NCBI RefSeq assembly: GCF_003012735.1
Contig: NZ_PXYI01000011.1
Location: forward strand, 1 to 32,000
Length of the DNA stretch: 32,000 bases
Source of the DNA: Allosphingosinicella deserti
GTDB taxonomy: Bacteria; Pseudomonadota; Alphaproteobacteria; Sphingomonadales; Sphingomonadaceae
Direction of reading: 5' to 3'
Below the pieces are notes generated by a model. It did no database searches. It was given only the letters and a program-made list of their open reading frames with translations, and was not told where the DNA came from. Below are positions 355-30,925 of this stretch, in pieces. The translations under genes were made by a program, and so were the position numbers. Position 1 is the first letter of the stretch; each line of letters begins with the position of its first letter.

Positions 355-356
355 TA

Positions 357-7434: not shown

Positions 7435-7483
7435 GGTATCTCACAAGAGCCGGCTCGAGACCGGCCACGGAGCAGAAAGGTCT

Positions 7484-15774: not shown

Positions 15775-15788
15775 ATAAGGAAAAGCAG

Positions 15789-16319: not shown

Positions 16320-16734
16320 AGGTTGTTCGGCAGTGGTCGGCCATCAGGAATTCGACACGGTTCACGGCCCGAGGTCGACGCCGGGCCAAGTAATGAGCTG
16401 CGGCGGATTTCATTGCCTTTGCACCAGCCTTGGCTCACCCTAATCGTCGCGAAGCGCACCAGTTGCATCGGCGGCGCGCCTGCGTCGGCGCTTCGGCTCG
16501 AGGCGGAGCGTTCCGCCGGACCTGCGATGGCGTTTGCGGTGCTTCTGAATCGCTCTATCCCGAGCCGTAACGCTCGTCGAGGCCCCGCACGGTTTCTCGG
16601 GGCGTTGCTGGGTAGGCCAAGCCAGGTTCCGGCAAGCTCGCGCGACCCAGGTGATCGGTAACACCGGTTACGTGATGAGAGAGAGTCGAGGTTCACCATT
16701 CTCTCAGATTCGATTCAAGATGGAAGGCTGCAGC

Positions 16735-17151
16735 ATGATGACCGACGAGATCGCCACGGCGACATCTGCATTTTCTCATTTCTCGTCGAAAATGAAACGT
16801 TGGAATGAGCATTTCTACCCTCTGATGGTGCAGGATGCCGAAGAAGCAGCCGGACACGCGATTGCTGAGCTCGGGCCAATCTTCGAATCTCACGTTTGGC
16901 CGGATGCAGTTCGCAGTGTCGAGCGCCTGAACAGTCCATCTGCCGGGCTGCCTTCTGATTACGACCCGGAGAATGACGTTATTGAAGAGGCTAATTTGCA
17001 ATCGTCTACATGTGTTTTACTTGTGCAATCTAATACCGGGTTCAAAGACAAGTTTCGCTACACGCTCAAGAAACGCGGCGGCGAATGGAAATTGTTTAGG
17101 AGGGATCTTTTCCTCGATGACACTGGGAAGTGGAGATCTCATCACATCTAA
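16735..17151 (+). CDS. NTF2-fold (RhsIA-like) immunity protein
   Basis: ATG 16735 follows GGAAGG. 138 aa with low GC. The pattern KMKRWNEHFYP ... LPSDYDPENDVIEE ... VLLVQSNTGFKDKFRYTLKKRGGEWKLFRRDLFLDDTGKW resembles Imm-NTF2/RhsIA proteins. Confidence 0.55.
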   Translation: MMTDEIATATSAFSHFSSKMKRWNEHFYPLMVQDAEEAAGHAIAELGPIFESHVWPDAVRSVERLNSPSAGLPSDYDPENDVIEEANLQSSTCVLLVQSNTGFKDKFRYTLKKRGGEWKLFRRDLFLDDTGKWRSHHI

Positions 17152-17224
17152 GTGGGGAAGGTACCTTCCAAGGTAGAGCCCATCAAGCACCGCATCCTGC
17201 TCGTACCTAGAGGACAAACAAAGC

Positions 17225-17746
17225 ATGGCCTGGACGGACGTCGCCGGCGCTCTGCAAAGCGCCTCGGCAACTGTTGTCGAAGGCTTGTTGGCCCCTCATA
17301 GGGACGAAAAGCTTTACGCTGTGGCCCTCTATGCCGCTGAGGATGGCATGAGCGTCGCCGTGGCGGCCAACTCCGAGGAGCAGTACCGGGCGCATCTTGC
17401 ATCCGAAGCTCTTGCCGGCGCCAACTCGCCGGGGGACGAGGTCTATTATCGATGGGCAACGTCCGAATGGTCCCTCGAACGATGGCACAGCGACTTGTTC
17501 GCCGAGGCCAACGCGCTGATCCGCGGGGAGGATAGGCGAGACTTCGACCGATATCGGGAGGCCCTGATCGAAGCGATGATCTCAGCGCTTGCCGGGGTAA
17601 GGGAATCGTTCGGCGACCGCCTTGCCGATGTCACCATGTTCGTCTCGGTAACCGACAGCGATGAAGCGGAAGGGATCGAGAATGACTCGGCCGCTCGCCT
17701 CAACCCAAAGGGCCTGGCGGATGGCTTTCTGTCTCGCTTCGAGTGA
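17225..17746 (+). CDS. DUF4303-like immunity protein (paralog 2, divergent)
   Basis: 173 aa. It shares EKLYAVALYAAEDGMSVAVAANSEE, RWATSEW, LIEAMISALAGVRE and VTMFVSVTDSDEAEGIENDSAARLNP with paralogs 1 and 3. Confidence 0.7.
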   Translation: MAWTDVAGALQSASATVVEGLLAPHRDEKLYAVALYAAEDGMSVAVAANSEEQYRAHLASEALAGANSPGDEVYYRWATSEWSLERWHSDLFAEANALIRGEDRRDFDRYREALIEAMISALAGVRESFGDRLADVTMFVSVTDSDEAEGIENDSAARLNPKGLADGFLSRFE

Positions 17747-17927
17747 CACCGGCCCGGTCGAGGCAGCGGAGGATAAGTGTTCATGACGCCTGTCAGCGCG
17801 CCCTCGCGCGGTTCCGCGGGTCAGGAAGCGAGAAACGCTCCCATCTGTTCGGATTCGTGCCGCTTGTCAGCCGTCCGACGTGTTTTCTCGACGGTACGCC
17901 GCTCCGCCGAAAAACCGGGAATGTACG

Positions 17928-18521
17928 ATGAGTCCCCTGGAACAAGTCCGATCTTATCTGCAAGGCGAAACTCCGCTGAAGGTATTTTACGACGCGGTGT
18001 CGCGCGACAAGGATCTGCAGGCGTATCTTGAGCAAGAAGTCCCTCTCCCTCGGTACATCGAGGAAGATACTCTGTTTCTGTACGTGATCAAACAGGAGCC
18101 GGGTAGCGTAGCGGCAGACCTGAACATCAAGGATGCGCTTGCACGCTTCCTGGTAGAGCTCGGAGTTGAGGCCGGCGTGGATCAAAGCTCCATGCGCAGT
18201 TATGAGTCGATCCTGGATGCAACCCCATCCTGGTTGGTCTTGCCCGACCATTACGCTACAGGGCTCATCAATCAGTTGCCTCAAGATTGCAGTCGAGCGG
18301 CCCGGATCAAACTCGCGAAAGAGCAGATCGCGCGAGACTTCCGCTATCTCAAGAGGCCGCCGAAGTGGCTTCAAACCGCAATGTGGCCTTGTGAAAACGG
18401 ACGGCCGCTGATGTTCGTCGGCCAGATGGACGTCGGTGACCTGATGCACGATGACGCTCAGCTCTACGTGTTCTTCGATCCGGAGGTGAAAGCTTTCCAT
18501 ACTCTGCTGCAGGTTTGCTAA
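17928..18521 (+). CDS. Hypothetical protein in the immunity array, 197 aa
   Basis: ATG 17928 starts a clean ORF. The C-terminus (PPKWLQTAMWPCENGRPLMFVGQMDVGDLMHDDAQLYVFFDPE) is faintly reminiscent of YwqG/DUF1963-type proteins. Confidence 0.6.
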   Translation: MSPLEQVRSYLQGETPLKVFYDAVSRDKDLQAYLEQEVPLPRYIEEDTLFLYVIKQEPGSVAADLNIKDALARFLVELGVEAGVDQSSMRSYESILDATPSWLVLPDHYATGLINQLPQDCSRAARIKLAKEQIARDFRYLKRPPKWLQTAMWPCENGRPLMFVGQMDVGDLMHDDAQLYVFFDPEVKAFHTLLQVC

Positions 18522-18620
18522 AGCATCGGGAGAGCGGGAGTTTGGTGGCGGCCCTCGCCGATCCTGACGACCGAACCCCCACGGCAGGAACCCACGCATT
18601 CTCGGGACTTGGAGACGAAG

Positions 18621-19451
18621 ATGGGCAAGTATCTGCGAGTTGTAGAACCGAATTATGCAGGCGAGTATGGCGCACTCGCCGATGACAAGATTTTCGCGCG
18701 CATCGCGGAAGCCACGACGGTGTATGAGTATCGGCTGCAGAACGGGAAGGTCGGGACGGGGGGCATCAGCAAAGTGATCCTCCTTGGCCCGGCGGCAGAG
18801 CGCCGGGTCGAGGATCTTATCGGTGTCCTCCGCTACGAGCATCCGCTGGGCGAGAACCCCGAAGTCAACGCATTGCCGACGCCGCACGAGCGCTATGTCG
18901 GCGAAGCGCATTACGCATTGCGCACGTTGGGTGCCGATCGCGGGTGGGATCTTGATGCGCTCGAGACGGTCTATCGCGGGGTGAAGGATGTCGATTATCG
19001 GTTCAACGGTACCTGGGCCAAGCCCAAGTGGAATCTGCGCCGAAGCTGTGCCGTCGGAGTGGAGTGGCGGACGGGCCGGCAACTGGAACTGGGCTTTACC
19101 GTGAGCCCCAAGGGCGGCGAGACACGCTGGTTGCCGTTCCTCGCCTCGCCGATTGGGCTAGGCAAGATCGACACGGCGGCGGGCAAGCTGGTCTGGGAGG
19201 ATGATCGGCATGCGCTGCTCTGGCACAGCAACAAACGCGACCGTTGGCGACTCGATACCGAGACGCTCCAGGCCGACTTCCTGTACGCGCCCGCCGAATG
19301 TGGAAACCCCCATGGCCAGTACGCCCTGGGCAAGATGTATCTCGATGGCAAATCGTGGGTTTCCGAGGACCGGGCCAAGGCGCTGTACTGGCTTCGGAAA
19401 TCGGCGGATCAGGGGTTTGCGCGCGCTGAGCGCCTGCTCGCGACCTTGTGA
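18621..19451 (+). CDS. Hypothetical protein with a C-terminal Sel1-like repeat, 276 aa
   Basis: ATG 18621 follows GGAG by 7 nt. The C-terminus (GNPHGQYALGKMYLDGKSWVSEDRAKALYWLRKSADQGFARAERLL) is a recognisable Sel1 (SLR) repeat. The N-terminal 230 aa are unassigned. Confidence 0.65.
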   Translation: MGKYLRVVEPNYAGEYGALADDKIFARIAEATTVYEYRLQNGKVGTGGISKVILLGPAAERRVEDLIGVLRYEHPLGENPEVNALPTPHERYVGEAHYALRTLGADRGWDLDALETVYRGVKDVDYRFNGTWAKPKWNLRRSCAVGVEWRTGRQLELGFTVSPKGGETRWLPFLASPIGLGKIDTAAGKLVWEDDRHALLWHSNKRDRWRLDTETLQADFLYAPAECGNPHGQYALGKMYLDGKSWVSEDRAKALYWLRKSADQGFARAERLLATL

Positions 19452-19500
19452 TGCGAGGCGTTCGACCGAAGTCGGACATGGCTTCGATCATGGAGGTGAC

Positions 19501-19872
19501 ATGAGTCGTATCGTCTTGGTGATAGATCCCGCGGGCGCTGTTCCTGCCTCCGTTGTCGTCCAGATCGCCCGTGTGTCCGGAACTGCTCTGTCGGAAACGA
19601 AGCGCGCGTTCCTGTCGGGCGAGCCGGTTCTCGACCTGGCCCTCTTCGATCGCAAGGACCCCCTCGGCACGACGCGGATCCTGGGCCTGTTGCGGGCATT
19701 GGAGGAAAGGGAGATCAGATACCGAGCCCGTGAGTTGACCGACGACATGGCCTACGACGCGAACGCGAACCATTTCGAGATCGATGCGATCACGCTCGAA
19801 AACATGATCGATGCCCACCGTGTATCCCTTTCCTACCAGTGTACGATCGGCTGGCTGGAGGATCCGGAGTGA
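19501..19872 (+). CDS. Small hypothetical protein in the immunity array, 123 aa
   Basis: ATG 19501 is preceded by a strong GGAGG site. No family recognised. Confidence 0.6.
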   Translation: MSRIVLVIDPAGAVPASVVVQIARVSGTALSETKRAFLSGEPVLDLALFDRKDPLGTTRILGLLRALEEREIRYRARELTDDMAYDANANHFEIDAITLENMIDAHRVSLSYQCTIGWLEDPE

Positions 19873-19894
19873 GGGCGGCGACGCCGGGAGAAGC

Positions 19895-20422
19895 ATGATG
19901 CAAGGAGAAGGCCCAGACCTCGTAACGGCGACGATCGGGGCGGCCGACGACCTGATCTCCTCCCTTGCGGCTGAGAGGCTCTATGCGATCTGCCTGCAGA
20001 CCGCGGACGATGGAATGAGCGTCGGCCTCTGCGCCAACACCGAAGAGGGCTATGCCGAGAAACGGGAATCCGAGGCCGAGTTCGAGGACATGACCGCTCG
20101 CTACGAGGCCTATCTGCGCTGGACGCCGGCCGAGTGGCGCTACGAGATGATCGGCGACGCCCATCTCGTGGACGTGAATCGCGATCTCACTGCGGCCGCC
20201 CTCGACGCCAAGGAGGCGTTCGACACTCATTTCGATCGCCTGATCGAGGCGATGATCGACGCCCTCGCGACGCTGCGTGCCGAACGTGGGACTGCGCTCG
20301 ACGGGATTACGCTGTTCGTGACGATCTCCGACAGCGAAGAGGCGGAGGCGATCGAGCATCGATCTGCGGTGCGGCTCAATCCGCCCGCACTGGCTGCTCC
20401 CTTCGTCGGCCGTTTCGAGTAG
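19895..20422 (+). CDS. DUF4303-like immunity protein (paralog 3, close to paralog 1)
   Basis: ATG ATG at 19895/19898 follows GGGAG. I counted 32 differences over a 147-aa core aligned with 15789-16319 (about 78% identity). The N-terminal ~30 aa are unrelated. Confidence 0.75.
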   Translation: MMQGEGPDLVTATIGAADDLISSLAAERLYAICLQTADDGMSVGLCANTEEGYAEKRESEAEFEDMTARYEAYLRWTPAEWRYEMIGDAHLVDVNRDLTAAALDAKEAFDTHFDRLIEAMIDALATLRAERGTALDGITLFVTISDSEEAEAIEHRSAVRLNPPALAAPFVGRFE

Positions 20423-20450
20423 GCCGGACGGTGTCGAAGAAGGAGCCTGA

Positions 20451-21134
20451 ATGATGACTGGCAATGCAATCGGGCGCTTCATGGACACCGCGCGGCGGGC
20501 CGGGATCGCCTTCGAAGCAACGCTGCCGTCGGTGATCGCCGACAAGGACGCAATCGACCGCCTCTTCGGGCAAGACATCGCGGAAGCCATCCAGCAATGT
20601 GGCTATCCCGGCGGCGTCGAGGTGCCGGGCATCGCCGAGGATCTCCTCATCTACCCGTTGGAGGAGATTGCCGCCCGCCAGGAGGGCTACCGATCCGGGG
20701 CCGGGGAGGAGCAGTGGGACAAGGATCATTGGGTCTTCGCCGATCGGTCCGCGGATCCGTTCACCGTCGGTACGGGTGGACGAATATTCTTCTCCCGGCA
20801 CGGGCAGGGGGCGTGGTCCTACGAGTATCTCTGCGCCAACCTGCTCGTCTTCTTCGATCTCGCGTCGGCATGGATCGAGTTCTTCGTGATCGATAACCAG
20901 AGCCAGATCGTCGACGATGACTTTTCCGTGCTCCCCCAGAAACGGGCGGAGTTCGAAGCGCGGGTGGGGGCGCTCGGCGGCGAGATCGACCGGGAGGCCG
21001 CGGTGCCGGTGATGCTGGGAGACTGGAGCCGGCTGGTTCGCCCGCCGCCCCGCGGGGCTGTCGTGCGCCCCGCCCCCACATTCTGCTGCAAGCGGATCAG
21101 CGGCCGTTGGCGGACCAATGCGGCGGGTCGGTGA
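20451..21134 (+). CDS. SUKH/SMI1-KNR4-like immunity protein, tentative
   Basis: ATG follows AAGGAG. The core WDKDHWVFADRSADPFTVGTGGRIFFSRHGQGAWSYEYLCANLLVFF resembles the SUKH layout. The 3' end overlaps the convergent gene by 38 nt. Confidence 0.5.
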   Translation: MMTGNAIGRFMDTARRAGIAFEATLPSVIADKDAIDRLFGQDIAEAIQQCGYPGGVEVPGIAEDLLIYPLEEIAARQEGYRSGAGEEQWDKDHWVFADRSADPFTVGTGGRIFFSRHGQGAWSYEYLCANLLVFFDLASAWIEFFVIDNQSQIVDDDFSVLPQKRAEFEARVGALGGEIDREAAVPVMLGDWSRLVRPPPRGAVVRPAPTFCCKRISGRWRTNAAGR

Positions 21135-21933
21135 TCAGTTTGTGAACCCCGTAGGTTGCGCCGACGGCGTGGAGTGCGGTGTTGGTGTTGCCGGATCGGG
21201 GCTGGTCGATGCGGTGGGTGCGCCCGGCGGCATCGACGACGTCGATCGCGTGATCCCAAGTGATCGTCATGTCGATGGCCGTGCCCTGGATATGGTTGGA
21301 GGTGAGCGACGGTTTGAAGCGGATCCCGAACAGCTCGACCATCGTCTGAGCCGCGCGCTTCGAGCTTCTGAGATCGCCGTGATCCCACAGGATGTCGACG
21401 TCGGGATTGGCGGGCACCGCGCCCGGCTGGATCTCTCCTGCAGCGATGCGCCAGGCATGGTGCATGATCCAGGCGCGGTGCACGTTCCGTCGCGTCGAGC
21501 TGACGCGCACGGTCGCCGGCGCGCGGCGGAGCGCCGTCAGGAAGCTCTCGACCTGGGTCGCGAAGGCGGGGGCAAGATCGCTGACCCGGTCGCTGTTCGG
21601 GAAACGGGCTTCGTTTGCCCGGAACCATCGCTCGCCGCTCAGCCGTGCCCGCCCCGCCGTGGCGCGCACGCGCTCCTGCATCAAGGCGGTCGGGGCGGTG
21701 GCCGAAAGCGCCGAAAAGGTGCGACCGACCGGCTCGACCCGTCCATCGGAGGGCACGCCCATCACGAGCGCCTGGAAGCGGCCGATCGCTGCAGTCGTGG
21801 CATCGTCGATGACGCCGTCGGTCCGCACCGGCGTGATCCCCATGTCCGCTGCGCGCAGGTTGAGGAGCTGCTGAACCGCGGCAACATCCGCCCGGACATT
21901 GGCGCCGTTCCTGCCCACCGACCCGGTGATCAT
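21097..21933 (-). CDS. Peptidoglycan-binding domain plus VanY-like LAS (M15) zinc peptidase with no signal peptide: candidate T6SS cell-wall effector E2
   Basis: The N-terminus (GRNGANVRADVAAVQQLLN ... DGVIDDATTAAIGRFQ) fits PG_binding_1. The C-terminus carries an exact SxHxxGxAxD motif (SNHIQGTAID) and a distal His (DPPHW). An RBS (GGGGAGAG) precedes the start. Confidence 0.75.
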   Translation of the reverse strand: MITGSVGRNGANVRADVAAVQQLLNLRAADMGITPVRTDGVIDDATTAAIGRFQALVMGVPSDGRVEPVGRTFSALSATAPTALMQERVRATAGRARLSGERWFRANEARFPNSDRVSDLAPAFATQVESFLTALRRAPATVRVSSTRRNVHRAWIMHHAWRIAAGEIQPGAVPANPDVDILWDHGDLRSSKRAAQTMVELFGIRFKPSLTSNHIQGTAIDMTITWDHAIDVVDAAGRTHRIDQPRSGNTNTALHAVGATYGVHKLITDPPHWSANGR

Positions 21934-21944
21934 CCTGCTCTCCC

Positions 21945-22250
21945 CTATTCGATGTTGTCGTCGTAGTCGGCGAGGGCGGCCTGAACCAGCCGGTTGGCGG
22001 CATGCGCGCGTTTCAGGCGGGCAAGCTCGGCGTCGGTGCCGGTGCAGAGACGTTTCAACTGCGCCTCGATCTGCTTGCGCCGCGCGGCATCATAGCCCTC
22101 TTCGCCGCGGAAATGATCGCAGCCGTCCCGGCGCGTGATGAAGGCACGAACGTCGGGGGGCAGCGCCCCTGCGCCCGCTTCGACCTTCGCGCCCGGCCCT
22201 GCCGCCGTGCAGGCGGACGCCAGGAGCGCAAGCAGAAGGAGACGCGTCAT
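21945..22250 (-). CDS. Small lipoprotein, candidate immunity partner of E2
   Basis: 101 aa with a lipobox-like leader (MTRLLLLALLASAC). The mature part contains two further Cys. The start overlaps the upstream methyltransferase stop (ATGA). The gene ends 11 nt before E2. Confidence 0.7.
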   Translation of the reverse strand: MTRLLLLALLASACTAAGPGAKVEAGAGALPPDVRAFITRRDGCDHFRGEEGYDAARRKQIEAQLKRLCTGTDAELARLKRAHAANRLVQAALADYDDNIE

Positions 22251-23677
22251 GCCAGGATCAACCCTTCGCTGACCAGAGTGCGCAGCCCCTTGTCGAGCGC
22301 CTCGGGCGTGTCGAGCCCGGCCTCTTGCCCGACGGCGACCAGCGCGGTGCGATCGCGGGTGCCGTCCAGGTGCGCGAGCAGGTGCCGCGGGCCGAATTCC
22401 TGGATGGTCATCAACCGATGATCGAGCGTGCAGATATTCTCCAGACCTTCGGCAAGCATGGCACGGATCAGCGGGCTGGCCCGCGGCCGTTCGCCGACTT
22501 CGCAGGCATAGGGCTCGGCTTCGGTGTAGAGATCGATGAGACCCGCGTTGAACATCTCGAACATCGCGATGCGGCGCGCCGGGGTGTCGACGAGTTCGGA
22601 CACCCTGAGCCGGCGGGGACGCTGCTCGACGAGCCGGGTCAGCGCCTCGGCGAGCGGCGCATCCTGCACTTCGAAGACGTTCGCGTTGATCCGGAACATC
22701 CCCTCCTCGTCGCGAAGGCAGCGGGTGACTGCATAGAGCTGCCCGAGGGCCTGGTGGTCGATGGTTCTGCGCGGGATGCGATCCGCCCGCACCAGCAACG
22801 TCTGCCGGAAGAAGCGGAAATCCTGGTAATCGCGTGCGCCGAGAATGCGGAGCAATTGTGCCGACGGGTCGCCTGCGGCCTCGATGCCATCCGGCAGAAA
22901 CGCATCGTTCATGCGCTCCCGGTCCGCGTCCCCGAGGAACTGAAGCCCGTTGGCACGAGCGGTTGCTTCGACGTCTGCCAGCGATTGCGGGTGGAAGTGG
23001 GGGCCGAGCTCGTCGTGGCAGAGAACCGACCAGGGCTTGTCGAGCGTGTGTTTGGCGGCGTCGCGAAGCGCGGCCTGGGCTGGATTCTGGCCGCCCTCCG
23101 GCTCGGCCGAAAGGGTCGTCAGATAGGCGCGTGCCGCACGCCAGCGGTCGGCGCCTTGCAGATCGCCGAGCTCGAGCAGCAGCGCATCGCGCAGCGCCTG
23201 CCTGAGATATCCGCCGGGAAGGGCATTGTAGCTGAGAAAGGCGACTCCGTCGGGCGCGAGCAACCGGCCGATCAGCGCCATGGTGGCCGACCGCACCTCG
23301 GCCGGCACCCAGGCGTAGATTCCGTGAGCGATGATATAGTCGAAGGGGCCCTCGAGGCGATGGTGCGCCTCGAGAATGTCGAGCACCTGCAATCCGGCAT
23401 TGTCGAGCCCGGCGAGCGCGCGCCAGCGCTCCCCGCGCGCCACCGCGGTCGGCGCGAGATCGAATCCCTCGAAGCGCGCCTGCGGATGCGCTGCGGCCAG
23501 CGAGAGCAGGTTCATGCCATCGCCGGCACCGATCTCAAGCACCCGTGCCGTCGACACCGGCGGCGGCGCCAGCCCGGTGAGCCGCGCGATCACGGCCAGC
23601 CGTTCCGGCGCGGTCTGGCTGAAGATCGCGCTTGGATAGGCGATCTCGTCATATGGGGTCGGCGCCGGACCGCTCAT
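22247..23677 (-). CDS. Class I SAM-dependent methyltransferase with a C-terminal predicted methyltransferase regulatory domain
   Basis: The start is MSGPAPTPYDEIAYPSAIFSQTAPERLAVIARLTGL. The SAM motif I is VLEIGAGDGMNL. The ~300-aa C-terminal extension resembles the PF10119-type architecture. Confidence 0.8.
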   Translation of the reverse strand: MSGPAPTPYDEIAYPSAIFSQTAPERLAVIARLTGLAPPPVSTARVLEIGAGDGMNLLSLAAAHPQARFEGFDLAPTAVARGERWRALAGLDNAGLQVLDILEAHHRLEGPFDYIIAHGIYAWVPAEVRSATMALIGRLLAPDGVAFLSYNALPGGYLRQALRDALLLELGDLQGADRWRAARAYLTTLSAEPEGGQNPAQAALRDAAKHTLDKPWSVLCHDELGPHFHPQSLADVEATARANGLQFLGDADRERMNDAFLPDGIEAAGDPSAQLLRILGARDYQDFRFFRQTLLVRADRIPRRTIDHQALGQLYAVTRCLRDEEGMFRINANVFEVQDAPLAEALTRLVEQRPRRLRVSELVDTPARRIAMFEMFNAGLIDLYTEAEPYACEVGERPRASPLIRAMLAEGLENICTLDHRLMTIQEFGPRHLLAHLDGTRDRTALVAVGQEAGLDTPEALDKGLRTLVSEGLILA

Positions 23678-23771
23678 GCCCTGCCGCCATGCGCAATCCG
23701 CAGCGCCGGAGAATGCAGGCGTGCGCAAAGCCGCTTGTGCTCCACCCGGACCTTCGCGTCGGTGATCCTGA

Positions 23772-24275
23772 TCATTCGATCTGCATGTCCAATGTTTCCG
23801 CGACCCGCTTGTAGAAAGCGGCGGAGCGCGGGTTCTTCTGTGCCGCATAGCGGGCGCTCACGGCGCGCGCCGCGCGGGCCGCCACCCGAAAGGAATCGAG
23901 GCGTTCCTGCCATTCGGTATCGCGTGTTCCGATGTCGCCGTTGACGAACCGTCCGACGACGTAGCCATCGGCCAAATCAAGGACTCCGATGGCGGGGACG
24001 CCGTCGCGCAGCTCGCCGTAAAAGGCGGCGCTGCTCGCGCCTCCATCGCGGCGGCGCAGCATGCCGAGACCGTCCGCCTTGCCGCTGCGGCAGGCGCCCG
24101 CCCAATGGGTCGGACCCTCGGTCAGCGAGGCCGGCCTGACGAAGCGGCAACCGGTGGCCGGATCCTGCGACCAGGCCGAGCCGGGCACAGGCCTGAACGG
24201 AGACTCCGCAGCCGATGCGGGGAGCGCCAGACCTGCAAGCCCCAGGACGGCGCCCAGCAAGTGCGCGCCGTTCAT
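23772..24275 (-). CDS. Periplasmic protein with MORN-like repeats, candidate immunity partner of E1
   Basis: The signal peptide is MNGAHLLGAVLGLAGLALPASA-AE. The ATG overlaps the E1 stop (ATGA at 24272-24275). WAGACRSGKADGLGML and YGELRDGVPAIG are MORN-like. Confidence 0.75.
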   Translation of the reverse strand: MNGAHLLGAVLGLAGLALPASAAESPFRPVPGSAWSQDPATGCRFVRPASLTEGPTHWAGACRSGKADGLGMLRRRDGGASSAAFYGELRDGVPAIGVLDLADGYVVGRFVNGDIGTRDTEWQERLDSFRVAARAARAVSARYAAQKNPRSAAFYKRVAETLDMQIE

Positions 24276-25216
24276 GACGCGAAGCTCGCGATCAGGGACG
24301 TGCTGCATTCGAAATGCATACCGTCCTCGACTCCGAACCCGGCACCCCAATACCAGCCCCGGGCATTGAAGAAGGGCGCGAGCAGCAGAAGGCCGTGCTG
24401 GACCTTGCTGTCCCCGCGCGGATCGAGCCGTCCGCCGATCTTCAGATCGATGGCCGTGCCCCAGCTGTGATTGGAAATGGCAGTGGATGAGCCGCGTTGC
24501 AGGCGGCACACCGTCATCCCTGCCGAGCTGATTGCATTGTAGAGGGTCGGGACCGCGGCCTGCACGTCGCTCATCACCTGGCGGAGGCTCTGAACCGCCG
24601 GGCGCAGACCGGTGGCGCGGAACGGGCCGACCGATTCGGTGACGAGCATGCGCTTGAGACGCTCGTTGGTGATCGGCTGATCGTTCTGGCTGTAAGTCTC
24701 CCGCGGGGAGCCGAACTTCTCCAGCAACACCCGGTTGGACGGCGAGTGCAGGCCCTTGTTGATCGTGTTCCGTGCCGGCTTCGGCAGCAAGGTCGTGTAG
24801 GATATCGAATTATTGGCGGGGATCGGGGCCGGTGCCGATGCGGGGAGCGGCGAGGCTGCCGAATGCGTCGGCGGCGGAGACTCTGGCCCGGCTGAGGTCG
24901 CCGGCGACCATCCGGTGCGAACCGGGGTCCTCACCGGAGTCACGTAACGGATCGGGGTGGATCCGGGGAGACCCTGCCCGCCCACTTGTCCGGTGAGGTG
25001 TCGCCAGGTGGTCGCGTTCGGCTCCACCAGTCCGTCAGGGTGGCGCAGGAAGCCGTTCTGGTAGTGGATTATCGCGGAGATGGTCCTCGGCCCGCAGCGT
25101 CCGTCGACCAGTCCGAGGCGCATCCCGGCGCGTGTCAGCAGAGTCTGGACGGCGATCGTGTCGCTCCTCTCGTTCACCCCGTTGATCCCAACCGAACATC
25201 GCAAAGCTGCTGTCAT
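24272..25216 (-). CDS. Peptidoglycan-binding domain, Pro/Ser/Ala linker and M15_4-like LAS zinc peptidase with no signal peptide: candidate T6SS cell-wall effector E1
   Basis: ATG 25216 follows GGAG by 6 nt (the ORF also opens at GTG 25228). The N-terminus (GINGVNERSDTIAVQTLLTRAG ... DGRCGPRTISAIIHYQ) fits PG_binding_1. The C-terminus carries SNHSWGTAID and EDGMHFE. Confidence 0.78.
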   Translation of the reverse strand: MTAALRCSVGINGVNERSDTIAVQTLLTRAGMRLGLVDGRCGPRTISAIIHYQNGFLRHPDGLVEPNATTWRHLTGQVGGQGLPGSTPIRYVTPVRTPVRTGWSPATSAGPESPPPTHSAASPLPASAPAPIPANNSISYTTLLPKPARNTINKGLHSPSNRVLLEKFGSPRETYSQNDQPITNERLKRMLVTESVGPFRATGLRPAVQSLRQVMSDVQAAVPTLYNAISSAGMTVCRLQRGSSTAISNHSWGTAIDLKIGGRLDPRGDSKVQHGLLLLAPFFNARGWYWGAGFGVEDGMHFECSTSLIASFAS

Positions 25217-25313: not shown

Positions 25314-28064
25314 TCAGCGGGCGTCTATCGTCACGGCAACCGGGCCTGCCTCGGGAGCGGCGATTTCAATCGTCTCCGGGGCGGCCGGTGAAGCGGCCGC
25401 GCCGAGCTGGTCGCCGAACGCGTAGACGAAGCCCTGCGGACCGGCATCGACGTGGATCGATTCGGTCTCGTCGCCCCTGATCTGACGCTCGAGCAATGCG
25501 ATCGACAGTTCCGGGAGCATCGTGTTGGTCAGGATCGCGTCGATCATGCGTCCGCCGGATGCGACCTCGTTGCAGCGGGAAACGATGAGATCGACGACCG
25601 CGTCGGCATAGCTGAAGCGGATCTTGTGATTGTCGCCGATCCGGCGCTCGACCCGCTTCAACTGAAGCCGAACGATGCTGCTGAGCATGTCCGGGCTGAG
25701 CGGGTAATAAGGCAGCACCAGCAGGCGGCCGAGCAATGCCGGCGGAAACACCTTGAGCAGTTCGGGGCGGAGCGCGCCGGCCAGCGCTTCGGGCTCGGGC
25801 TTCATCTCCTCGTCCTCGGAAAGGCTCATCACCAGATCGGTTCCGGCATTCGACGTCAGCAGGATGATCGTGTTCTTGAAATCGATGAAACGGCCTTCGC
25901 TGTCGTTCATGAAGCCCTTGTCAAAGACCTGGAAAAACATCTCGTGGACGTCCGGATGGGCCTTTTCGACCTCGTCGAGCAGCACCACCGAATAAGGGCG
26001 CCGGCGAACCGCTTCCGTGAGCACACCGCCCTGGCCGTAGCCGACATAGCCAGCCGGGGCGCCTTTGAGCGTCGAGACCGTGTGCGCCTCCTGGAACTCG
26101 CTCATGTTGATCACGATCAGCGAATCGTCGCCGGAAAAGAGCAGCTCCGCCAGCGCGTGCGCAGTCTCCGTCTTGCCGACGCCCGATGGGCCGCAGAGCA
26201 TGAACACGCCAACCGGCTTGTTGGGATTGTCGAGCTTGGCACGGCTCGTCTGAATGCGTTTCGCGATCGCGTCCATCGCATGATCCTGCCCGACGACCCG
26301 CGCCTTCAGCTGATCGGCGATGGTGAGCACGCTCTGGATCTCGTCCTTGACCATCCGGCCGACGGGAATGCCGGTCCAGTCCCCGACCACGGCCGCCACC
26401 GCATCGTGATCGACGACGCCGAACACCATCGGCGCATCCTCTTGCGCCGCGCGCATCCCGGCGATCGCCTCGTCCAGGGCGGCACGGAGCTCAGCCTCCG
26501 TCTCCGGTGCCGCGTTCTCGCCATCGGCACGCGCATCGCGCAGCGCATCGCGAGCCTGCGTGACGGTCGCCAGCGCTTCCTTTTCGCGGGCCCATTTCGC
26601 ATCGGCCGCCTCCAATGCGCTCCGTGCCTCGACCAGTTCCTCGTCGATACGATCGAGCCGGTCGTCGGCGCGATATTGGCCGGCCGCTTCCCGCGCGACG
26701 ACGTCTCTTTCCACCTCCAGCAACTGCACCTTCCGGCGTCGGTCTTCCACCGGCGCAGGTGTCGCATGCTGGGAAACGGCGACCCGGGCGCACGCGGTGT
26801 CGAGAAGGCTCACCGCCTTGTCGGGCAGCTGCCGCGCCGGAACGTAACGCTGCGACAGCAGGACCGAAGCCGCGACGGCCTCGTCCAGTACGACGACTCC
26901 GTGATGGTCCTCCATCATCGGGGCGACGGAGCGCAGCATGTCGATGGCCCTGGGCGCTTCGGGCTCGCTGACGTCGACCGTCTGGAACCTCCGGGTAAGC
27001 GCAGGGTCCTTTTCGAAATATTGCCGGTATTCGGCGTAGGTGGTGGCGGCAATGGTCCTCAGCCGGCCGCGCGCCAGGGCCGGCTTCAGCAAATTGGCGG
27101 CGTCGCCGGTACCGGCCTGCCCGCCGGCCCCGATCAGGCTGTGGGCCTCGTCGATGAACAGCACGATCGGCGTCGGCGAGCTTTCCACTTCGTCGATCAC
27201 CTGACGCAGACGCTTCTCGAACTCGCCCTTCATGCTCGCACCGGCCTGCATCAGCCCGATGTCGAGAGCCCGGAGCGAAATCCCGGTCAGTGCCGGCGGC
27301 ACGTCTCCATCGACGATGCGCTTGGCGAAGCCTTCCACCACCGCCGTCTTGCCGACCCCGGCCTCTCCGACGAGGATCGGATTATTCTGGCGGCGGCGCA
27401 AAAGGATGTCGACCAGCTGCCGGATTTCGGCGTCGCGCCCAACGACCCCATCGATCTCGCCCGAGCGGGCCCTGGCGGTGAGGTCGATGGAGAATTTCGC
27501 CAGCGCTTCGCCGCCGGCGCTGCCGCCACCCGTGTTGCCGGGTTCCGCACCCGCAGAGACATTTGCGGGTGCGTCGACGATGGTCGTTTCGGAAGAACCG
27601 CCGACCAGGTGATCGAAATCCGTGCCGAGGGTCTCGACTGCGACCTTCCGCCACTCGCCGCTGAGCGAGAACAATGCGTTCCGCAGCGTCGGCGATTTCA
27701 GCATGCCGTGGAGAAGGTGCCCCGTGCGCACCCGGGCCGCTCCGAACTGGAGCGAAGCGTACAGCCAGCCCTTTTCGATCGCTTCCTCGATCTGTGGCGA
27801 GAAGTCCGAGATCGCGGTCGCGCCCCGGGGAAGCGCATCGAGCGCCGCCACGACGTCGGTGGTCAGCTTGGCATCGTCCAGGCCGAATGCCGATCGGATC
27901 GCGGCCACGTCGTTGCGCGGATCCTGTAACAGGATGTGCACCCAATGCGCCAGCTCCACATAGGGGTTGCCGCGCATCTTGCAGAAGCTGGTCGCCGTCT
28001 CGATGGCCTTGAGGGCGGTCGGGTTCAAGCGGCCGAACAAGGCGGTGCGGCTGATCTCGGTCAT
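25314..28064 (-). CDS. clpV: T6SS AAA+ ATPase ClpV (TssH)
   Basis: The start is MTEISRTALFGRLNPTALKAIETATSFCKMRGNPYVELAHW. There are two Walker A sites (GEAGVGKT, GPSGVGKT). The ATG overlaps the tssG stop (ATGA at 28061-28064). Confidence 0.97.
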   Translation of the reverse strand: MTEISRTALFGRLNPTALKAIETATSFCKMRGNPYVELAHWVHILLQDPRNDVAAIRSAFGLDDAKLTTDVVAALDALPRGATAISDFSPQIEEAIEKGWLYASLQFGAARVRTGHLLHGMLKSPTLRNALFSLSGEWRKVAVETLGTDFDHLVGGSSETTIVDAPANVSAGAEPGNTGGGSAGGEALAKFSIDLTARARSGEIDGVVGRDAEIRQLVDILLRRRQNNPILVGEAGVGKTAVVEGFAKRIVDGDVPPALTGISLRALDIGLMQAGASMKGEFEKRLRQVIDEVESSPTPIVLFIDEAHSLIGAGGQAGTGDAANLLKPALARGRLRTIAATTYAEYRQYFEKDPALTRRFQTVDVSEPEAPRAIDMLRSVAPMMEDHHGVVVLDEAVAASVLLSQRYVPARQLPDKAVSLLDTACARVAVSQHATPAPVEDRRRKVQLLEVERDVVAREAAGQYRADDRLDRIDEELVEARSALEAADAKWAREKEALATVTQARDALRDARADGENAAPETEAELRAALDEAIAGMRAAQEDAPMVFGVVDHDAVAAVVGDWTGIPVGRMVKDEIQSVLTIADQLKARVVGQDHAMDAIAKRIQTSRAKLDNPNKPVGVFMLCGPSGVGKTETAHALAELLFSGDDSLIVINMSEFQEAHTVSTLKGAPAGYVGYGQGGVLTEAVRRRPYSVVLLDEVEKAHPDVHEMFFQVFDKGFMNDSEGRFIDFKNTIILLTSNAGTDLVMSLSEDEEMKPEPEALAGALRPELLKVFPPALLGRLLVLPYYPLSPDMLSSIVRLQLKRVERRIGDNHKIRFSYADAVVDLIVSRCNEVASGGRMIDAILTNTMLPELSIALLERQIRGDETESIHVDAGPQGFVYAFGDQLGAAASPAAPETIEIAAPEAGPVAVTIDAR

Positions 28065-29095
28065 TGCAATTCCCCCGGTGCGCCATGGGCGATTCTGATA
28101 CGGCGTAAATGAGCATCCGATCGGATGCGAGACGTCTTCTGCGGGCTCAACCACCCCGTCCATCCCAAACGGGTCCGGCCGTCGAGCCGGGCTGGAGGAA
28201 CGAGCTGCTCCTCGAGTTCCAAGCGGATGTCCCATTCGAGGTGGCCAGGGGCGAACGCCTCGAGCGCTTCCGAGGCGATCGCGAACCGTTCGCTGGTCGG
28301 CAGAAGCCTTTCGAACTCGTCGGCCGATCGCGCGCGGATGACCACGCTGAACGCATCCGATGCCGTTCGAATGCGGCTGCCGAGCACCAGATCGTCGCCG
28401 AGGCGAGCGAAGCTGCGTCCCAGGCGGCTGCGGTCATCGACGGGAATCTCGCGCCAGCGGGGCTGGAACTGGTGGATCCGGACCGGTTGGCCGAGAAGCT
28501 GGCTGAGAGCATCCTCGATCGCGATGGCGCTGCGGCGGGACGCGAACAGGGCCGCATAATAGACCCGCGCCCGCTTCGGAAACAAAGCACGGTCGGATAC
28601 GCCTTCGGCGGCGCCCGAGAGCGCTGCGAGATAGCCGGCGAACCGGTCGTCATCCGGTCGGTCGGCGTGGACGACAGGTTGGGAATCGCCCCAGGCACGG
28701 AAGAAGAATTGCAGCATGCGATTGGCGAGGACGTCCAGCCAGCGTCCGAACGGCCGCTTCTTCGCGTATCGGTGTTCGAAGGTCGCGAACTCGGTGAGGT
28801 GAATGGGCAGGGCGCCCTGCGGCCCGGTCAGCCCGAGCCAGTATCCGTTGAGCTGCGGTCGTCCGTTCCGGAACTCGACCGATTCCAGCGTCGGCGCCGG
28901 AAAGTGCATCGCCGGAACCTGGGCGAGATCGACGATGCTCTGGCTCGGCCGCCGCGCACGGCCGACGCGCGGAAGCTCCGGCGCGCGTGCCTCGGCTCCG
29001 CGCACCGCCGGGAACATGCCGAACCGCCGCGCAGCGTCGCCGACGCGCTTCAGGAAGCTCAGATGTTGTGTTGGCGGCCCATCCGCGGCGGCCAT
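28061..29095 (-). CDS. tssG: T6SS baseplate protein TssG (ImpH)
   Basis: It lies between tssF and clpV, with the typical N-terminus LSFLKRVGDAARRFGMFPAVRGAE. ATG 29095 follows GGGGAG by 8 nt. ATG 29134 is an alternative start. Confidence 0.88.
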   Translation of the reverse strand: MAAADGPPTQHLSFLKRVGDAARRFGMFPAVRGAEARAPELPRVGRARRPSQSIVDLAQVPAMHFPAPTLESVEFRNGRPQLNGYWLGLTGPQGALPIHLTEFATFEHRYAKKRPFGRWLDVLANRMLQFFFRAWGDSQPVVHADRPDDDRFAGYLAALSGAAEGVSDRALFPKRARVYYAALFASRRSAIAIEDALSQLLGQPVRIHQFQPRWREIPVDDRSRLGRSFARLGDDLVLGSRIRTASDAFSVVIRARSADEFERLLPTSERFAIASEALEAFAPGHLEWDIRLELEEQLVPPARLDGRTRLGWTGWLSPQKTSRIRSDAHLRRIRIAHGAPGELQ

Positions 29096-30921
29096 TGCGC
29101 GAACTCCCCTTCGTTCGGGCTGTAGAAGCTGCATTCGGTAAATGCGTTTATACTGGCGAACTCGGCCAGGAAGCGTTCGAGAACCGCAGTGAACAGGAAC
29201 ATGCCGCCCTTGTCGAAGGCGGCGTCGTCCAGCTTCATCCGGATGCGATGCCCGCGGGCCAGCGCCATCCGGTCGAGCCCGGGCACCCGGCGCATGACCT
29301 TGCTGGATCGGATGGCGAGGACGCCATCGATCTGCCGGCGGAGGGCCGCATCGTCCTGGCGGCCGTAAAGCGCGAGGTGATCGCGCAAGGCGGACGGATC
29401 CTCATGGTCCTCGGGCGCAAGCGTCATGTAATTGGGCGTGAGATGGGCGATGACCCGCCAGGCAGCATCGCCCAGGCCCAAAGGCGGCCGTGGGCGCGTG
29501 GGCGCTCGCAGCACCGAGATCGCGCGGGCGGGGACACCGGACGCCACGAAATGCTTATCGCCCCGAAAGGTGAGCAGCTCGGGGAGTTCCCGATTGGTGA
29601 CCAGCGCCCGGACCGAAAGTTCATGGACATCCTCGATCCGCGCCGGGTCGCCTGGCGAGGTCAGGCTCAGCCAGGTTTCGGTGCCGACATATTCGCTGCG
29701 ACGGCGCAGCCGCTGCTCACGAGTCGAGAGCCGCCGCGGCCGGAGCTGCGACGAGTAGAACAAGGCCTCGCGCCAATCATAAAGCAGCGCCCCGAAGGCG
29801 TAGAGCGGGGCGACCGTGCGGGCGTCGAGATTGTCGCGGGCATAGGCCTTCACCTCGAGCGGGCGGAACACTTCGAAATCGTAGCGCCGGGTGCGATCGG
29901 GGATGAGGTGATATTCATGCTCGTGCGGGCGGACCTGCACTCGATCGAGCTGCTTCTCGAAGAGGTTGATGGCCGGGCTCGCGTAGAGCTTGAAATTGCT
30001 GACATCGACGGCACGCGCCAGCACCGGCGACGACCGGCCAAACAGCAGCACGACGTCGCAGGCCTTGGGGGATGTTCGGAACGCGCGGTCGAGCTGCATC
30101 AATCGCGCGAACAGGAACCGCTCCGGGCAGGCGAAATATTCTGAGAGGAGCCGGTAACCGCGAAAGGCGCGCTGCTCGGCGGGGAGCAATGCATCTTCGT
30201 CCTCGAAGCCGACCTGTTCGGGCCGGGGCAGCGACATCCAGGCGGCATTGGCGGGCGCATCGGCGGAGCGGGCGAGCACCGCCTGCGTCTCTCCGATGAG
30301 CTGCCGGTACAATTCATTGGGCACAGCTTCCGCGCCATGAAGATAGAGTGGCAGCTCTTTCGGAAGCACCTGGGGCAGCTCGGCGCCCGCGGTCGCGGCG
30401 AAGCGCAATCGCAGGCCGGCTTCGGCCCGTACCTTGGCCGCCGCGGCAAAGGGCGCGACAGCAGCGCGGGTCGACAGATATTCCGCCTCGACGATCTTGA
30501 GCGGCCAAAGCGTTACGTCGTGACCGGTGCGGAAGATGACGGGGGCATTGTCCTGATCGGATGCCGTCGCGATCAATTGCGTACCCCTGGGGACGCGATG
30601 GCCCTTCAACAGGATCTGATCACCTTCCTGCGGCTCGAAGCCCGCGATGCAGATCGACGGCATCGGCGCCAGATAATGGGGCTGGATGGCGTGAAGCAGA
30701 TGGGAGGTGAACTCCGGATACTGGTCCGCCATCTTGAGCTGCACGCGAGCGCCGAGATAGGCGACTCCTTCGAGCAGCCGTTCGACGTAAGGATCCGGAT
30801 CCGTCGGGGTCTTGAGGCCGAGGCGCCCTGCGACGCTTTCATGCTCCTCGCCGAACTCGCGTGCGGCTTCGCGCAGATAGGTCAGTTCGTCGTTGTAGAA
30901 GCGCAGGAGCCGGGGATCCAC
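29059..30921 (-). CDS. tssF: T6SS baseplate protein TssF (ImpG)
   Basis: GTG 30921, 4 nt after the tssE stop, gives VDPRLLRFYNDELTYLREAAREFGEEHESVAGRL, the canonical TssF N-terminus. The longer ORF upstream overlaps tssE and is Arg/Ser-rich. Confidence 0.92.
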   Translation of the reverse strand: MDPRLLRFYNDELTYLREAAREFGEEHESVAGRLGLKTPTDPDPYVERLLEGVAYLGARVQLKMADQYPEFTSHLLHAIQPHYLAPMPSICIAGFEPQEGDQILLKGHRVPRGTQLIATASDQDNAPVIFRTGHDVTLWPLKIVEAEYLSTRAAVAPFAAAAKVRAEAGLRLRFAATAGAELPQVLPKELPLYLHGAEAVPNELYRQLIGETQAVLARSADAPANAAWMSLPRPEQVGFEDEDALLPAEQRAFRGYRLLSEYFACPERFLFARLMQLDRAFRTSPKACDVVLLFGRSSPVLARAVDVSNFKLYASPAINLFEKQLDRVQVRPHEHEYHLIPDRTRRYDFEVFRPLEVKAYARDNLDARTVAPLYAFGALLYDWREALFYSSQLRPRRLSTREQRLRRRSEYVGTETWLSLTSPGDPARIEDVHELSVRALVTNRELPELLTFRGDKHFVASGVPARAISVLRAPTRPRPPLGLGDAAWRVIAHLTPNYMTLAPEDHEDPSALRDHLALYGRQDDAALRRQIDGVLAIRSSKVMRRVPGLDRMALARGHRIRMKLDDAAFDKGGMFLFTAVLERFLAEFASINAFTECSFYSPNEGEFAQWPPRMGRQHNI

Positions 30922-30925
30922 GGCG

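Follow-up and report, generated by a model that had tools for sequence, protein, structure and literature searches.

The 32,000-nucleotide (nt) window considered here (positions 1 to 32,000 of contig NZ_PXYI01000011.1, assembly GCF_003012735.1, Allosphingosinicella deserti) carries a minus-strand string of type VI secretion system (T6SS) genes, tssE-F-G-clpV, that is continued 3' of clpV by five genes in the order E1, P1, methyltransferase, P2, E2. E1 and E2 encode predicted peptidoglycan peptidases of the LAS/M15 type, P1 and P2 encode small exported proteins, and we consider E1-P1 and P2-E2 to be candidate T6SS effector/immunity pairs. All five genes share strand and string with tssE-F-G-clpV. 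The T6SS AAA+ ATPase gene clpV/tssH (25314..28064; Pfam: AAA_2, AAA_lid_9, ClpB_D2-small, and Clp_N) encodes a protein with 85% identity to ClpV of Sphingomonas T6SS clusters and likely starts with MTEISR at 28064, which gives a 4-nt overlap with the tssG stop. From clpV through E1, P1, the methyltransferase gene, P2, and E2, the spacers are 97, -4, 94, -4, and 11 nt: the clpV stop (25314) lies 97 nt from the E1 ATG (25216), which is preceded by a GGAG 8 nt upstream; E1 and P1 overlap by 4 nt, as do the methyltransferase gene and P2; the P1 stop (23772) lies 94 nt from the methyltransferase ATG (23677); and E2 follows P2 after 11 nt. We saw no terminator-like site on the minus strand between clpV and E2. 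The third-position guanine-plus-cytosine (GC) content of the five open reading frames (ORFs) is 0.79–0.85, which supports their being genuine genes. This anatomy agrees in strand, coordinates, and gap lengths (about 97 nt or less) with an earlier note on this DNA.

Two signal-less peptidases and their exported partners

E1 (24272..25216, minus strand) encodes a protein of 314 residues (33.5 kDa, isoelectric point [pI] 10.1) that consists of three parts: an N-terminal divergent PG_binding_1-like domain (residues 1–78; 24983..25216), a Pro/Ser/Ala-rich linker (residues 79–139; 24800..24982) that forms a gappy, unconserved block of variable length in the homologue alignment, and a LAS/M15_4 catalytic domain (residues 140–314; 24275..24799). 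The Pfam model Peptidase_M15_4 matches residues 242–303 with 43.2 bits (cut-off 25, E-value 6.2e-11). The Pfam PG_binding_1 score of 19.8 bits is under the 23-bit cut-off; phiKZ gp144 and SleB, whose peptidoglycan (PG)-binding domains have solved structures, are matched by the E1-family profile at about 1e-5 (8e-6). The motifs of E1 are GINGVN...VQTLL, SNHSWGTAID (24446-24475), and DGMH (24314-24325), and residues H250, D257, D298, and H301 are invariant in 20 of 20 diverse family sequences. By analogy with Ply500 and TagX (PMC5061870), the predicted zinc ligands are H250, D257, and H301, and D298 of the DGMH motif is the likely general base. We predict that E1 is a LAS/M15 metallopeptidase acting as a peptidoglycan peptidase effector. 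The protein also matches phage LAS lysins weakly by sequence. It has neither a signal peptide nor a membrane anchor, as the PG-binding domain begins at about residue 5 and no hydrophobic segment is present. E1 is 100% identical to the NCBI entry 'M15 family metallopeptidase [Allosphingosinicella deserti]'. This entry has 301 residues and is 13 residues shorter than the ORF starting at the ATG at 25216 (the difference being 25178-25216); the shorter start would lose the conserved M-x-x-x-I-x-x-SVG..G beginning of the PG-binding domain.

E2 (21097..21933, minus strand; 278 residues, 30.0 kDa, pI 11.0) likewise opens with a PG_binding_1-like domain (residues 1–80; 21694..21933), which scores 22.9 bits against Pfam PG_binding_1, just under the 23-bit cut-off. 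Its catalytic domain (residues 97–278; 21100..21645) has no match in Pfam, NCBIfam, or PHROG, PHROG matches being restricted to the PG-binding domain, and none among PDB sequences even when the family profile is used. The AlphaFold2 model of E2, built on 24 homologues, has a predicted local distance difference test (pLDDT) score of 94.5 and a predicted template modelling score of 0.85. It is folded from about residue 5 at a pLDDT of 95, and no signal peptide is present. All 12 top Foldseek matches of the model in the PDB are LAS peptidases, including Ply500 (probability 1.00), LysECD7, VanY, ChiX, LysB4, LdcB, VanXYc, and VanX, and the top matches in BFVD, a database of predicted viral structures, are labeled 'Peptidase M15B'. 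The best Foldseek E-value is a modest 2e-3, and identity to VanY, VanXY, and LdcB is 10–17%; the assignment of a LAS fold of the VanY/M15B type thus rests on the consistency of the match list together with the residues H214, D221, H272, D269, R149, and R153. Across 24 family sequences D269 is nearly invariant and the other five are invariant. The motifs of E2 are GRNGAN...VQQLL, SNHIQGTAID (21271-21300), and DPPH (21118-21129), and the zinc ligands are predicted to be H214, D221, and H272. We predict from the model that E2, too, is a LAS/M15-fold enzyme and a peptidoglycan peptidase effector. The E2 family comprises 146 clusters, mainly from sphingomonads, almost all of which have no recorded Pfam domain. 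The closest database cluster, 98% identical to E2, derives from a Logan assembly only, with no NCBI entry listed, and E2 is possibly unannotated or differently annotated in the source genome.

Comparison of the full-length family profiles of E1 and E2 aligns only the N-terminal domains (hhalign probability 99%, E-value 1.4e-18, 80 columns). When the catalytic halves are compared alone, they also align (81%, E-value 1.3e-5, 101 columns) with both zinc motifs in register. The two enzymes thus share a homologous N-terminal domain, and their catalytic domains are distantly related members of two M15 subfamilies. The earlier note had called the two proteins non-paralogous, which is too strong given both alignments, and had described their catalytic halves as otherwise dissimilar, which holds insofar as they are only remote relatives but not insofar as they can be aligned. 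Its other observations on the enzymes stand: the PG_binding_1-like module is supported in both proteins by the Pfam scores and by hhalign, and the zinc motif and distal histidine are found in both, with the His/Asp/His set invariant in the 20 E1 and 24 E2 family sequences. The Pfam search it had proposed for fixing the M15 subfamily places E1 in Peptidase_M15_4 and leaves the catalytic half of E2 without a model, its M15B-type assignment coming from the fold. The N-terminal domain was also considered as a T6SS-specific delivery marker. We rejected this candidate, as the domain profile matches 24,267 proteins at an E-value of 1e-3 or below among 1.84 billion representatives and tandem copies are found, which describes a generic PG_binding_1-type module. 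The best of these matches are proteins of 300–1500 residues with 2–17 tandem copies at internal positions.

P1 (23772..24275, minus strand) encodes an exported protein of 167 residues that we predict to be the periplasmic immunity protein for E1. It begins with MNGAHLLGAVLGLAGLALPASA, followed by AE, with a signal peptide spanning residues 1 to about 23 (24204-24275). Residues C43 and C62 are invariant among its relatives. The AlphaFold2 model (pLDDT 86.6) consists of a β-hairpin sheet packed on a C-terminal helical hairpin and is MORN-like; its only meaningful fold match in the PDB is the MORN-repeat region of junctophilin-2 (probability 0.96, E-value 0.03), and no known immunity protein was matched in this search. 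P2 (21945..22250, minus strand) encodes a lipoprotein of 101 residues that we predict to be the immunity protein for E2. Its N-terminus is MTRLLLLALLASAC, which includes the lipobox LASAC with Cys14 (22209-22211). The lipobox is conserved among P2 relatives, C44 and C69 are invariant, and the conserved core reads LPADVxAF..RDxCDHFRGEE...CTGTD...Y...IE. Neither P1 nor P2 has a match in Pfam, NCBIfam, or PHROG or in PDB sequence searches. Signal peptides were assessed by eye and with a hydropathy heuristic. An N-terminal hydrophobic segment is present in 52 of 52 P1 relatives, and 47 of these 52 reach the stricter cut-off of 2.0, against only 1 of 60 E1 relatives. The contrast drawn in the earlier note between signal-less enzymes and exported small neighbors is thereby borne out across the family.

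Distribution and gene neighborhoods of the two pairs

The E1 family comprises more than 620 clusters at 90% identity, and E1-P1 pairs are spread over Alpha-, Beta-, and Gammaproteobacteria, Acidobacteriota, Myxococcota, and Planctomycetota. When one genome per species was scanned, 290 relatives of E1 were obtained, and the loci of the best 80 were examined with 10-kb flanks each. The domain order of the window protein, an N-terminal PG-binding domain followed by M15_4, is found in 64 loci, and a P1 profile identifies a partner in 53 of these 64; two of the 11 loci with no P1 partner end at a contig edge. The P1 relative is directly downstream of the E1 relative wherever position was scored. 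clpV is directly upstream of E1 in 11 of the 51 loci with enough flanking sequence. Seven of these 11 belong to sphingomonads and keep the arrangement clpV-E1-P1-(methyltransferase)-P2-E2, usually followed by a PAAR gene and a DUF4123-Rhs toxin; the other four are from a betaproteobacterial metagenome-assembled genome (MAG), Aquabacterium, a Methylococcaceae MAG, and Sphaerotilus, and their ClpV proteins are only about 60% identical to that of the window. In Aquabacterium, E1-P1 is followed by VgrG and a DUF2169/pentapeptide protein, in Sphaerotilus by VgrG, DcrB/Eag, and PAAR-Rhs, and in the betaproteobacterial MAG by a DUF4280 PAAR-like protein; nothing related to T6SS was found 3' of E1-P1 in the Methylococcaceae MAG (locus L028). 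Falsiroseomonas has the order E1-P1-VgrG, and in a Polyangiaceae MAG (L012) a gene for a DUF2169 adaptor protein ends 44 nt before the E1 relative.

The remaining loci are bare two-gene E1-P1 cassettes amid unrelated housekeeping genes. A Pfam census of 148 neighbors of such free cassettes revealed no recurring theme and no phage functions. P1 relatives also occur as orphans, with no E1 gene or remnant nearby, in Variovorax (L091/L092, 8001-8546; 66% identity to the window P1) and in Rhizobium sp. N122 (L093, 8001-8522; 52% identity). These lone genes either are flanked by a non-ribosomal peptide synthetase/MFS pair and a gene for a GntR regulator or follow Tad pilus genes. Identity this high between members of different classes suggests that an orphan immunity gene has been transferred horizontally, and lone P1 genes are what would be expected under the usual orphan-immunity pattern.

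P2 homologues are directly upstream of E2 homologues in loci L001, L004–L009, and L086–L090. In L086/87, the P2-E2 cassette is inserted in the middle of a branched-chain amino-acid (liv-type) ABC transporter operon, in Sphingomonas pseudosanguinis (L088/89) it lies beside tssK-tssL-tssM and a gene for an M23 peptidase, and in L090 it is near a fragmented clpV. S. pseudosanguinis also has a free E1-P1 cassette (L036) on a contig other than that of its P2-E2 locus, which shows that the two pairs of a genome with a T6SS can be apart, one being located at the cluster and the other elsewhere. The M23 peptidase of this species, a 446-residue Csd3_N2 + Peptidase_M23 protein encoded directly upstream of P2-E2 and divergent from tssK-tssL-tssM (L088/L089:6170-8873), represents another peptidase of the LAS type encoded at a T6SS locus.

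The gene between the two pairs (22247..23677, minus strand) encodes a PKMT-type methyltransferase of 476 residues that is dependent on S-adenosylmethionine (Pfam: Methyltransf_12/25/23, MethyTransf_Reg, and PKMT_2nd). It is found in this position in six Sphingomonas-type loci and is absent from that of Novosphingobium (L008), where P1 is directly followed by P2-E2. Because of this locus, we rejected the idea that the module requires the methyltransferase, which probably belongs to neither pair. In Aquabacterium, an unrelated TPR + methyltransferase protein (L027:11371-12741) fills the same slot, after E1-P1 and before vgrG; the presence of a methyltransferase in this slot may be chance or a recurring association.

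The E1-type M15_4 domain occurs in two further forms, with 46–58% identity. The short form (L065–L083) is a signal-less protein of ~253 residues in which M15_4 comes first and a canonical PG_binding_1 domain last. The gene that follows it encodes a protein of 180–200 residues that has a signal peptide and whose mature part opens with a conserved Y-x-S...C motif; this protein has no Pfam family and is not matched by the P1 profile. An example is L069:9965-11329, and hosts include Nitrosomonas, Methylobacter, Bosea, Ca. Nitrotoga, and Vicinamibacteria. The anchored form, of ~285 residues with an N-terminal transmembrane helix (the TagX layout), is found in T6SS loci of Rhodobacterales: in L073 (6999-7856) it is divergent from tssA-B-C-hcp and in L080 (9764-10624) it is upstream of an IcmF-like gene and vgrG.

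The earlier note raised no link to phages, and we found phage relatives for both catalytic domains. In IMG/VR, the catalytic domain of E1 has 105 relatives, with identities of up to 57%, and that of E2 has 25, with identities of up to 46%, all of them catalytic-domain-only except for one weak full-length match (L106, 27% identity). The contigs inspected are real phages in which the peptidase gene lies amid head-tail adaptor/connector, scaffold, or tape-measure/lysozyme genes. In 15 of the 25 phage contigs with an E2-type gene, a gene for a P2-type lipoprotein is directly 3' of it (blastp 1e-11; profile 112–121 bits), and these 15 come mostly from one related prophage group. In contigs of this type (L179–L190, L195, L196, L198, and L181; IMG/VR, GC 0.44–0.49), the E2-type gene encodes a catalytic-only protein of 186–192 residues at about 4995-5860, lies between virion structural genes and the tape-measure/lysozyme gene, and is overlapped and followed by the gene for the P2 homologue. 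As judged from gene content, this is a putative lysin-plus-inhibitor pair inside a phage structural module. The L179-type prophage with the E2-type gene was not found among GenBank phages or Escherichia coli genomes, and among 50,697 GenBank phage genomes the E1 and E2 families are nearly absent (one match and no match). The P1 profile found no match in any phage or short-form locus. As P2 is found with the E2 catalytic domain in both bacterial and phage loci, it appears to travel with this domain in any vehicle, as a specific binding partner or inhibitor would do.

On the minus strand upstream of clpV are ImpE/TagJ (31464-31943), tssE (30926-31459), a TssF-type ORF (29059-31173), and a TssG-type ORF (28061-29134), the last two being 82% and 79% identical, respectively, to the T6SS_TssF- and T6SS_TssG-domain genes of Sphingomonas sp. 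S2-65. A set of plus-strand genes (10887-21134) converges on the minus-strand clpV-E2 string. These encode a DcrB/Eag (DUF1795-type) chaperone (10887-11318), a PAAR-DUF6531-Rhs toxin of 1487 residues with a weak AHH nuclease C-terminus (11311-15774), three immunity-type DUF4303 proteins (15771-16319, 17225-17746, and 19811-20422), an immunity-type Imm-NTF2 protein (16651-17151), a Sel1 protein (18609-19451), and the products of two ORFs with no family (17880-18521 and 20451-21134); the immunity-type genes resemble an orphan-immunity array converging on E2. Positions 1-11000 have a GC content of 0.57–0.62, against 0.65–0.70 beyond, and contain genes for DUF6683 proteins at 1788-2585 (plus strand) and 4608-5432 (minus strand), an Imm11-like gene (2900-3619), and several family-less ORFs; this part may hold additional toxin/immunity cargo or form an island of its own. 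The DcrB/Eag chaperone, the PAAR-Rhs toxin, and the immunity-type genes of the DUF4303, Imm-NTF2, and Imm11 kinds mark the window as a weapon locus of the T6SS, and neither phage nor holin genes were found in it.

Proposed effector/immunity function and alternative explanations

We hypothesize that the tssE-F-G-clpV operon ends in two antibacterial effector/immunity modules of the T6SS, E1-P1 and P2-E2, a prediction from gene content and comparison to which we assign a probability of roughly 0.65. The signal-less enzymes, their exported partners, and the tight co-inheritance of the two, often as overlapping genes, favor this reading, as do the mobility of the two-gene units, the orphan partners, the repeated placement between clpV and vgrG or PAAR genes, the DUF2169 neighbor, and the toxin-rich locus. 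Of the explanations considered, it is the best fit to every comparative result. E1 and E2 would be made without a Sec signal in the cytoplasm, where they have no substrate, and would be delivered by the T6SS into the periplasm of a neighboring cell. As neither enzyme has a PAAR, VgrG, or known adaptor domain, loading as Hcp-borne cargo would, by analogy, be the most likely route. The N-terminal PG-binding domain would hold the enzyme on the sacculus while the zinc LAS peptidase cuts the peptide stem; TagX, Ply500, and ChiX suggest by analogy that the L-Ala-D-Glu bond would be the most probable target, activity as a carboxypeptidase or as another endopeptidase being possible as well. The weakened wall would lead to lysis of the cell. 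Sister cells would be guarded by the Sec-exported periplasmic P1 and the lipoprotein P2, each binding and thereby blocking its cognate catalytic domain.

Several observations weigh against this hypothesis. No T6SS gene is present within 10 kb for about 75–80% of the surveyed E1 loci, any such gene being found in about 12–14 of them. No recognized delivery marker (PAAR, VgrG fusion, MIX, FIX, or WHIX) was detected in E1 or E2 with Pfam, and a DUF2169 adaptor is encoded directly upstream in only one E1 relative (L012). Hcp-dependent loading needs no such marker; a size of 30–33 kDa is near the upper limit usually quoted for Hcp cargo. E1 is in the same Pfam family as TagX, the anchored M15_4 proteins in T6SS loci of Rhodobacterales are 46–49% identical to its catalytic domain, and both catalytic domains have relatives on phage contigs with 34–57% identity. 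Finally, one E2 relative (L084/85) has no adjacent P2.

Some of these points would be accounted for if the pairs were phage-derived lysin/inhibitor cassettes independent of T6SS, released, for example, by lysis, vesicles, or a holin-like route in the manner of ChiX, with the exported partner guarding the producer or lysogen and the place in the operon reflecting hitch-hiking. The IMG/VR relatives of the two catalytic domains (105 and 25) on real phage contigs, the endolysin-type architecture of the short form, with M15_4 followed by PG_binding_1, and the P2-type lipoprotein after 15 of 25 phage E2-type genes are what one would look for under this explanation. A PG-binding domain plus a catalytic domain with no signal peptide is moreover the classic endolysin layout, signal-less ChiX is among the fold matches of E2, and most cassettes are far from T6SS genes. 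However, of the phage matches only the weak L106 has the N-domain architecture of E1 and E2, P1 is never found in phage loci, and the families are nearly absent from the GenBank phage genomes. Repeated insertion between clpV and vgrG or PAAR genes in three proteobacterial classes, together with a DUF2169 neighbor, would also be unexpected, no release function is encoded nearby, and neither phage nor holin genes occur in the window or phage genes among the 148 neighbors of free cassettes. We consider this explanation of the window genes unlikely, and we reject the narrower idea that the window holds a prophage endolysin, given the lack of phage genes in either setting. A different explanation, the TagX-like alternative of the earlier note, is that E1, E2, or both open the peptidoglycan of the producer itself at local sites for passage of the membrane complex or tube of the T6SS; P1 and P2 would then be spatial or temporal regulators instead of immunity proteins. 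TagX, an L-Ala-D-Glu endopeptidase of the Peptidase_M15_4 family (pfam13539), is required for Hcp secretion (PMC5061870; PMC13584744), and E1 matches the same model; an M15 protein, 'TagY', has been proposed for the T6SS of Sinorhizobium fredii (PMC11872809). Relatives of E1 are fixed right after clpV even where ClpV is only about 60% identical, and the anchored M15_4 proteins of L073 and L080 lie inside T6SS loci. Against this, TagX has two transmembrane segments and a periplasm-facing catalytic domain (PMC5061870), whereas E1 and E2 have neither anchor nor signal, so that the producer's own wall would be out of their reach by the Sec route. Most relatives are outside T6SS clusters, no partner of TagX is described in PMC13584744 or PMC5061870 whereas E1 and E2 keep exported partners, one of which (P1) also occurs alone elsewhere, and a single assembly task would hardly call for two different peptidases in one operon. 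Of that alternative, membership of E1 in Peptidase_M15_4 stands, but neither the anchor nor the confinement to T6SS clusters is found; although weakened, and in our view improbable, it is still a serious competitor.

The lack of export signals and the presence of VanX, VanXY, and LdcB among the fold matches of E2 would also be compatible with cytoplasmic enzymes of peptidoglycan precursor metabolism or recycling, such as VanX- or LdcA-like dipeptidases or carboxypeptidases, in which case the exported neighbors would be unrelated. We regard this as very improbable, since a peptidoglycan-binding domain would have no obvious use in the cytoplasm and the exported partners are tightly co-inherited, often as overlapping genes, in a T6SS/vgrG context. 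The very basic character of E1 and E2 (pI 10–11) also speaks against it; a high pI is common for wall-binding lysins. Returning to the effector/immunity hypothesis, the earlier note had arrived at the same interpretation, which gains from co-inheritance, the clpV-vgrG/PAAR slot, mobility, and orphan partners and requires amendment in that the two enzymes are not unrelated.

Relation to known systems and implications

TagX (Acinetobacter ACX60_11600/ACIAD2699, Burkholderia BCAL0352) is a T6SS-associated L,D-endopeptidase related to the phage lysin Ply500 (PMC5061870). Like E1, it is a Peptidase_M15_4 (pfam13539) protein with a LAS zinc site and is encoded in a T6SS cluster. Unlike E1, it has two N-terminal transmembrane segments, remains an inner-membrane protein that is not secreted, and targets the wall of its producer; in E1, a PG-binding domain replaces the anchor, a dedicated exported partner is present, and the family is mostly found outside T6SS clusters. 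The catalytic half of E2 differs further in not being matched by the M15_4 model.

The pairing of a cell-wall effector with a periplasmic immunity protein is textbook T6SS biology. The Tae/Tai, Tse1/Tsi1, Ssp/Rap, Tge/Tgi, and Tlde1/Tldi1 pairs resemble those described here in that a signal-less wall enzyme is encoded beside a Sec-exported or lipoprotein immunity protein, in or away from T6SS clusters, and an Agrobacterium Tae-Tai pair presumably also lies between clpV/hcp and vgrG. The enzymes of these pairs, however, are NlpC/P60- or CHAP-type amidases, muramidases, or YkuD-like proteins, whereas E1 and E2 combine a zinc LAS/M15 domain with a PG-binding domain, and the MORN-like P1 and P2 match no described immunity family. 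LAS-type T6SS effectors that are known or predicted include Tse4/Tpe4 (M23), Tpe14AB (LysM + Peptidase_M15_3 + M23), the WHIX effectors, some of which carry 'Peptidase M15-like' or 'PG_binding1 + Peptidase M15' N-termini, and the LysM-M15 proteins of Neisseria (PMC6833914; PMC12135965; PMC10210955). These share with E1 and E2 a LAS domain, a peptidoglycan-binding module, and signal-peptide neighbors. They are large (600–850 residues) and VgrG-linked or WHIX-marked, and their M15 domains are only predicted, whereas E1 and E2 are small, lack a delivery marker, and consist of two domains, the catalytic one being M15_4 or an unmodelled M15B-like domain.

The phage LAS lysins Ply500, LysB4, LysECD7, and the T5 endolysin, together with Serratia ChiX, resemble E1 and E2 in consisting of a PG-binding and a catalytic module with no signal peptide. 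E1 and E2 differ from phage lysins in having no lysis-cassette context and in a domain order and N-terminal domain not found in their phage relatives. Endolysins have no immunity partner, the phage E2-type genes followed by a P2-like lipoprotein gene being the exception. VanY, VanXY, and LdcB (MEROPS M15B) share with E2 the fold and the SxHxxGxAxD...DxxH metal site but serve in housekeeping or resistance, are membrane-anchored or exported, and have neither a PG_binding_1 domain nor a partner gene.

In the literature searched, which excluded subscription journals, we came across neither of the two families, E1-P1 and P2-E2, nor a MORN-like or P2-type immunity protein, nor an experimentally characterized stand-alone M15 effector. 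No paper was found that names Peptidase_M15_4 together with T6SS. Two sets of hits were set aside: several mentions of 'M15' in T6SS papers are lacZ deltaM15 strain genotypes and not peptidases, and no peptidoglycan-hydrolase domain is described for Re78/Re79 of Rhizobium etli. The assertion of the earlier note that this is a poorly described LAS class can be retained for the two families themselves and has to be narrowed for the class, since TagX is an M15_4 protein, M23 effectors have been characterized, and M15 domains have been listed in other predicted T6SS effectors.

One can speculate that a small set of LAS peptidase modules is shared by three conflict systems, an anchored TagX-type assembly hydrolase that acts on its own producer, a T6SS weapon that combines a PG-binding domain with an immunity protein (E1 and E2), and a gene of the phage virion module, possibly for a virion-associated lysin, and that the prophage P2 lipoproteins are true inhibitors. 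We hold this broader proposal to be doubtful. If it were true, the prophage P2 lipoproteins would cross-protect lysogens against E2-type T6SS effectors or against the lysins of superinfecting phages, and T6SS immunity and immunity to phage entry would draw on one protein family.

The general understanding of T6SS warfare is unchanged by E1-P1 and P2-E2. If the effector/immunity assignment is confirmed, the two pairs would add two families of cell-wall-targeting T6SS effectors, which would be the first characterized stand-alone M15-type effectors; P1, with its MORN-like fold, and P2, a lipoprotein with two cysteines, would likewise be new as immunity folds or families. Annotation pipelines could use the E2 catalytic domain to catch a family that has no model and whose members are mostly labeled 'hypothetical protein'. 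The wider interest of these systems lies in the sharing of their parts: a P2-type lipoprotein is shared with prophages, and the TagX catalytic module, reused as ammunition, would serve both to open the attacker's own wall and to breach that of its neighbor.

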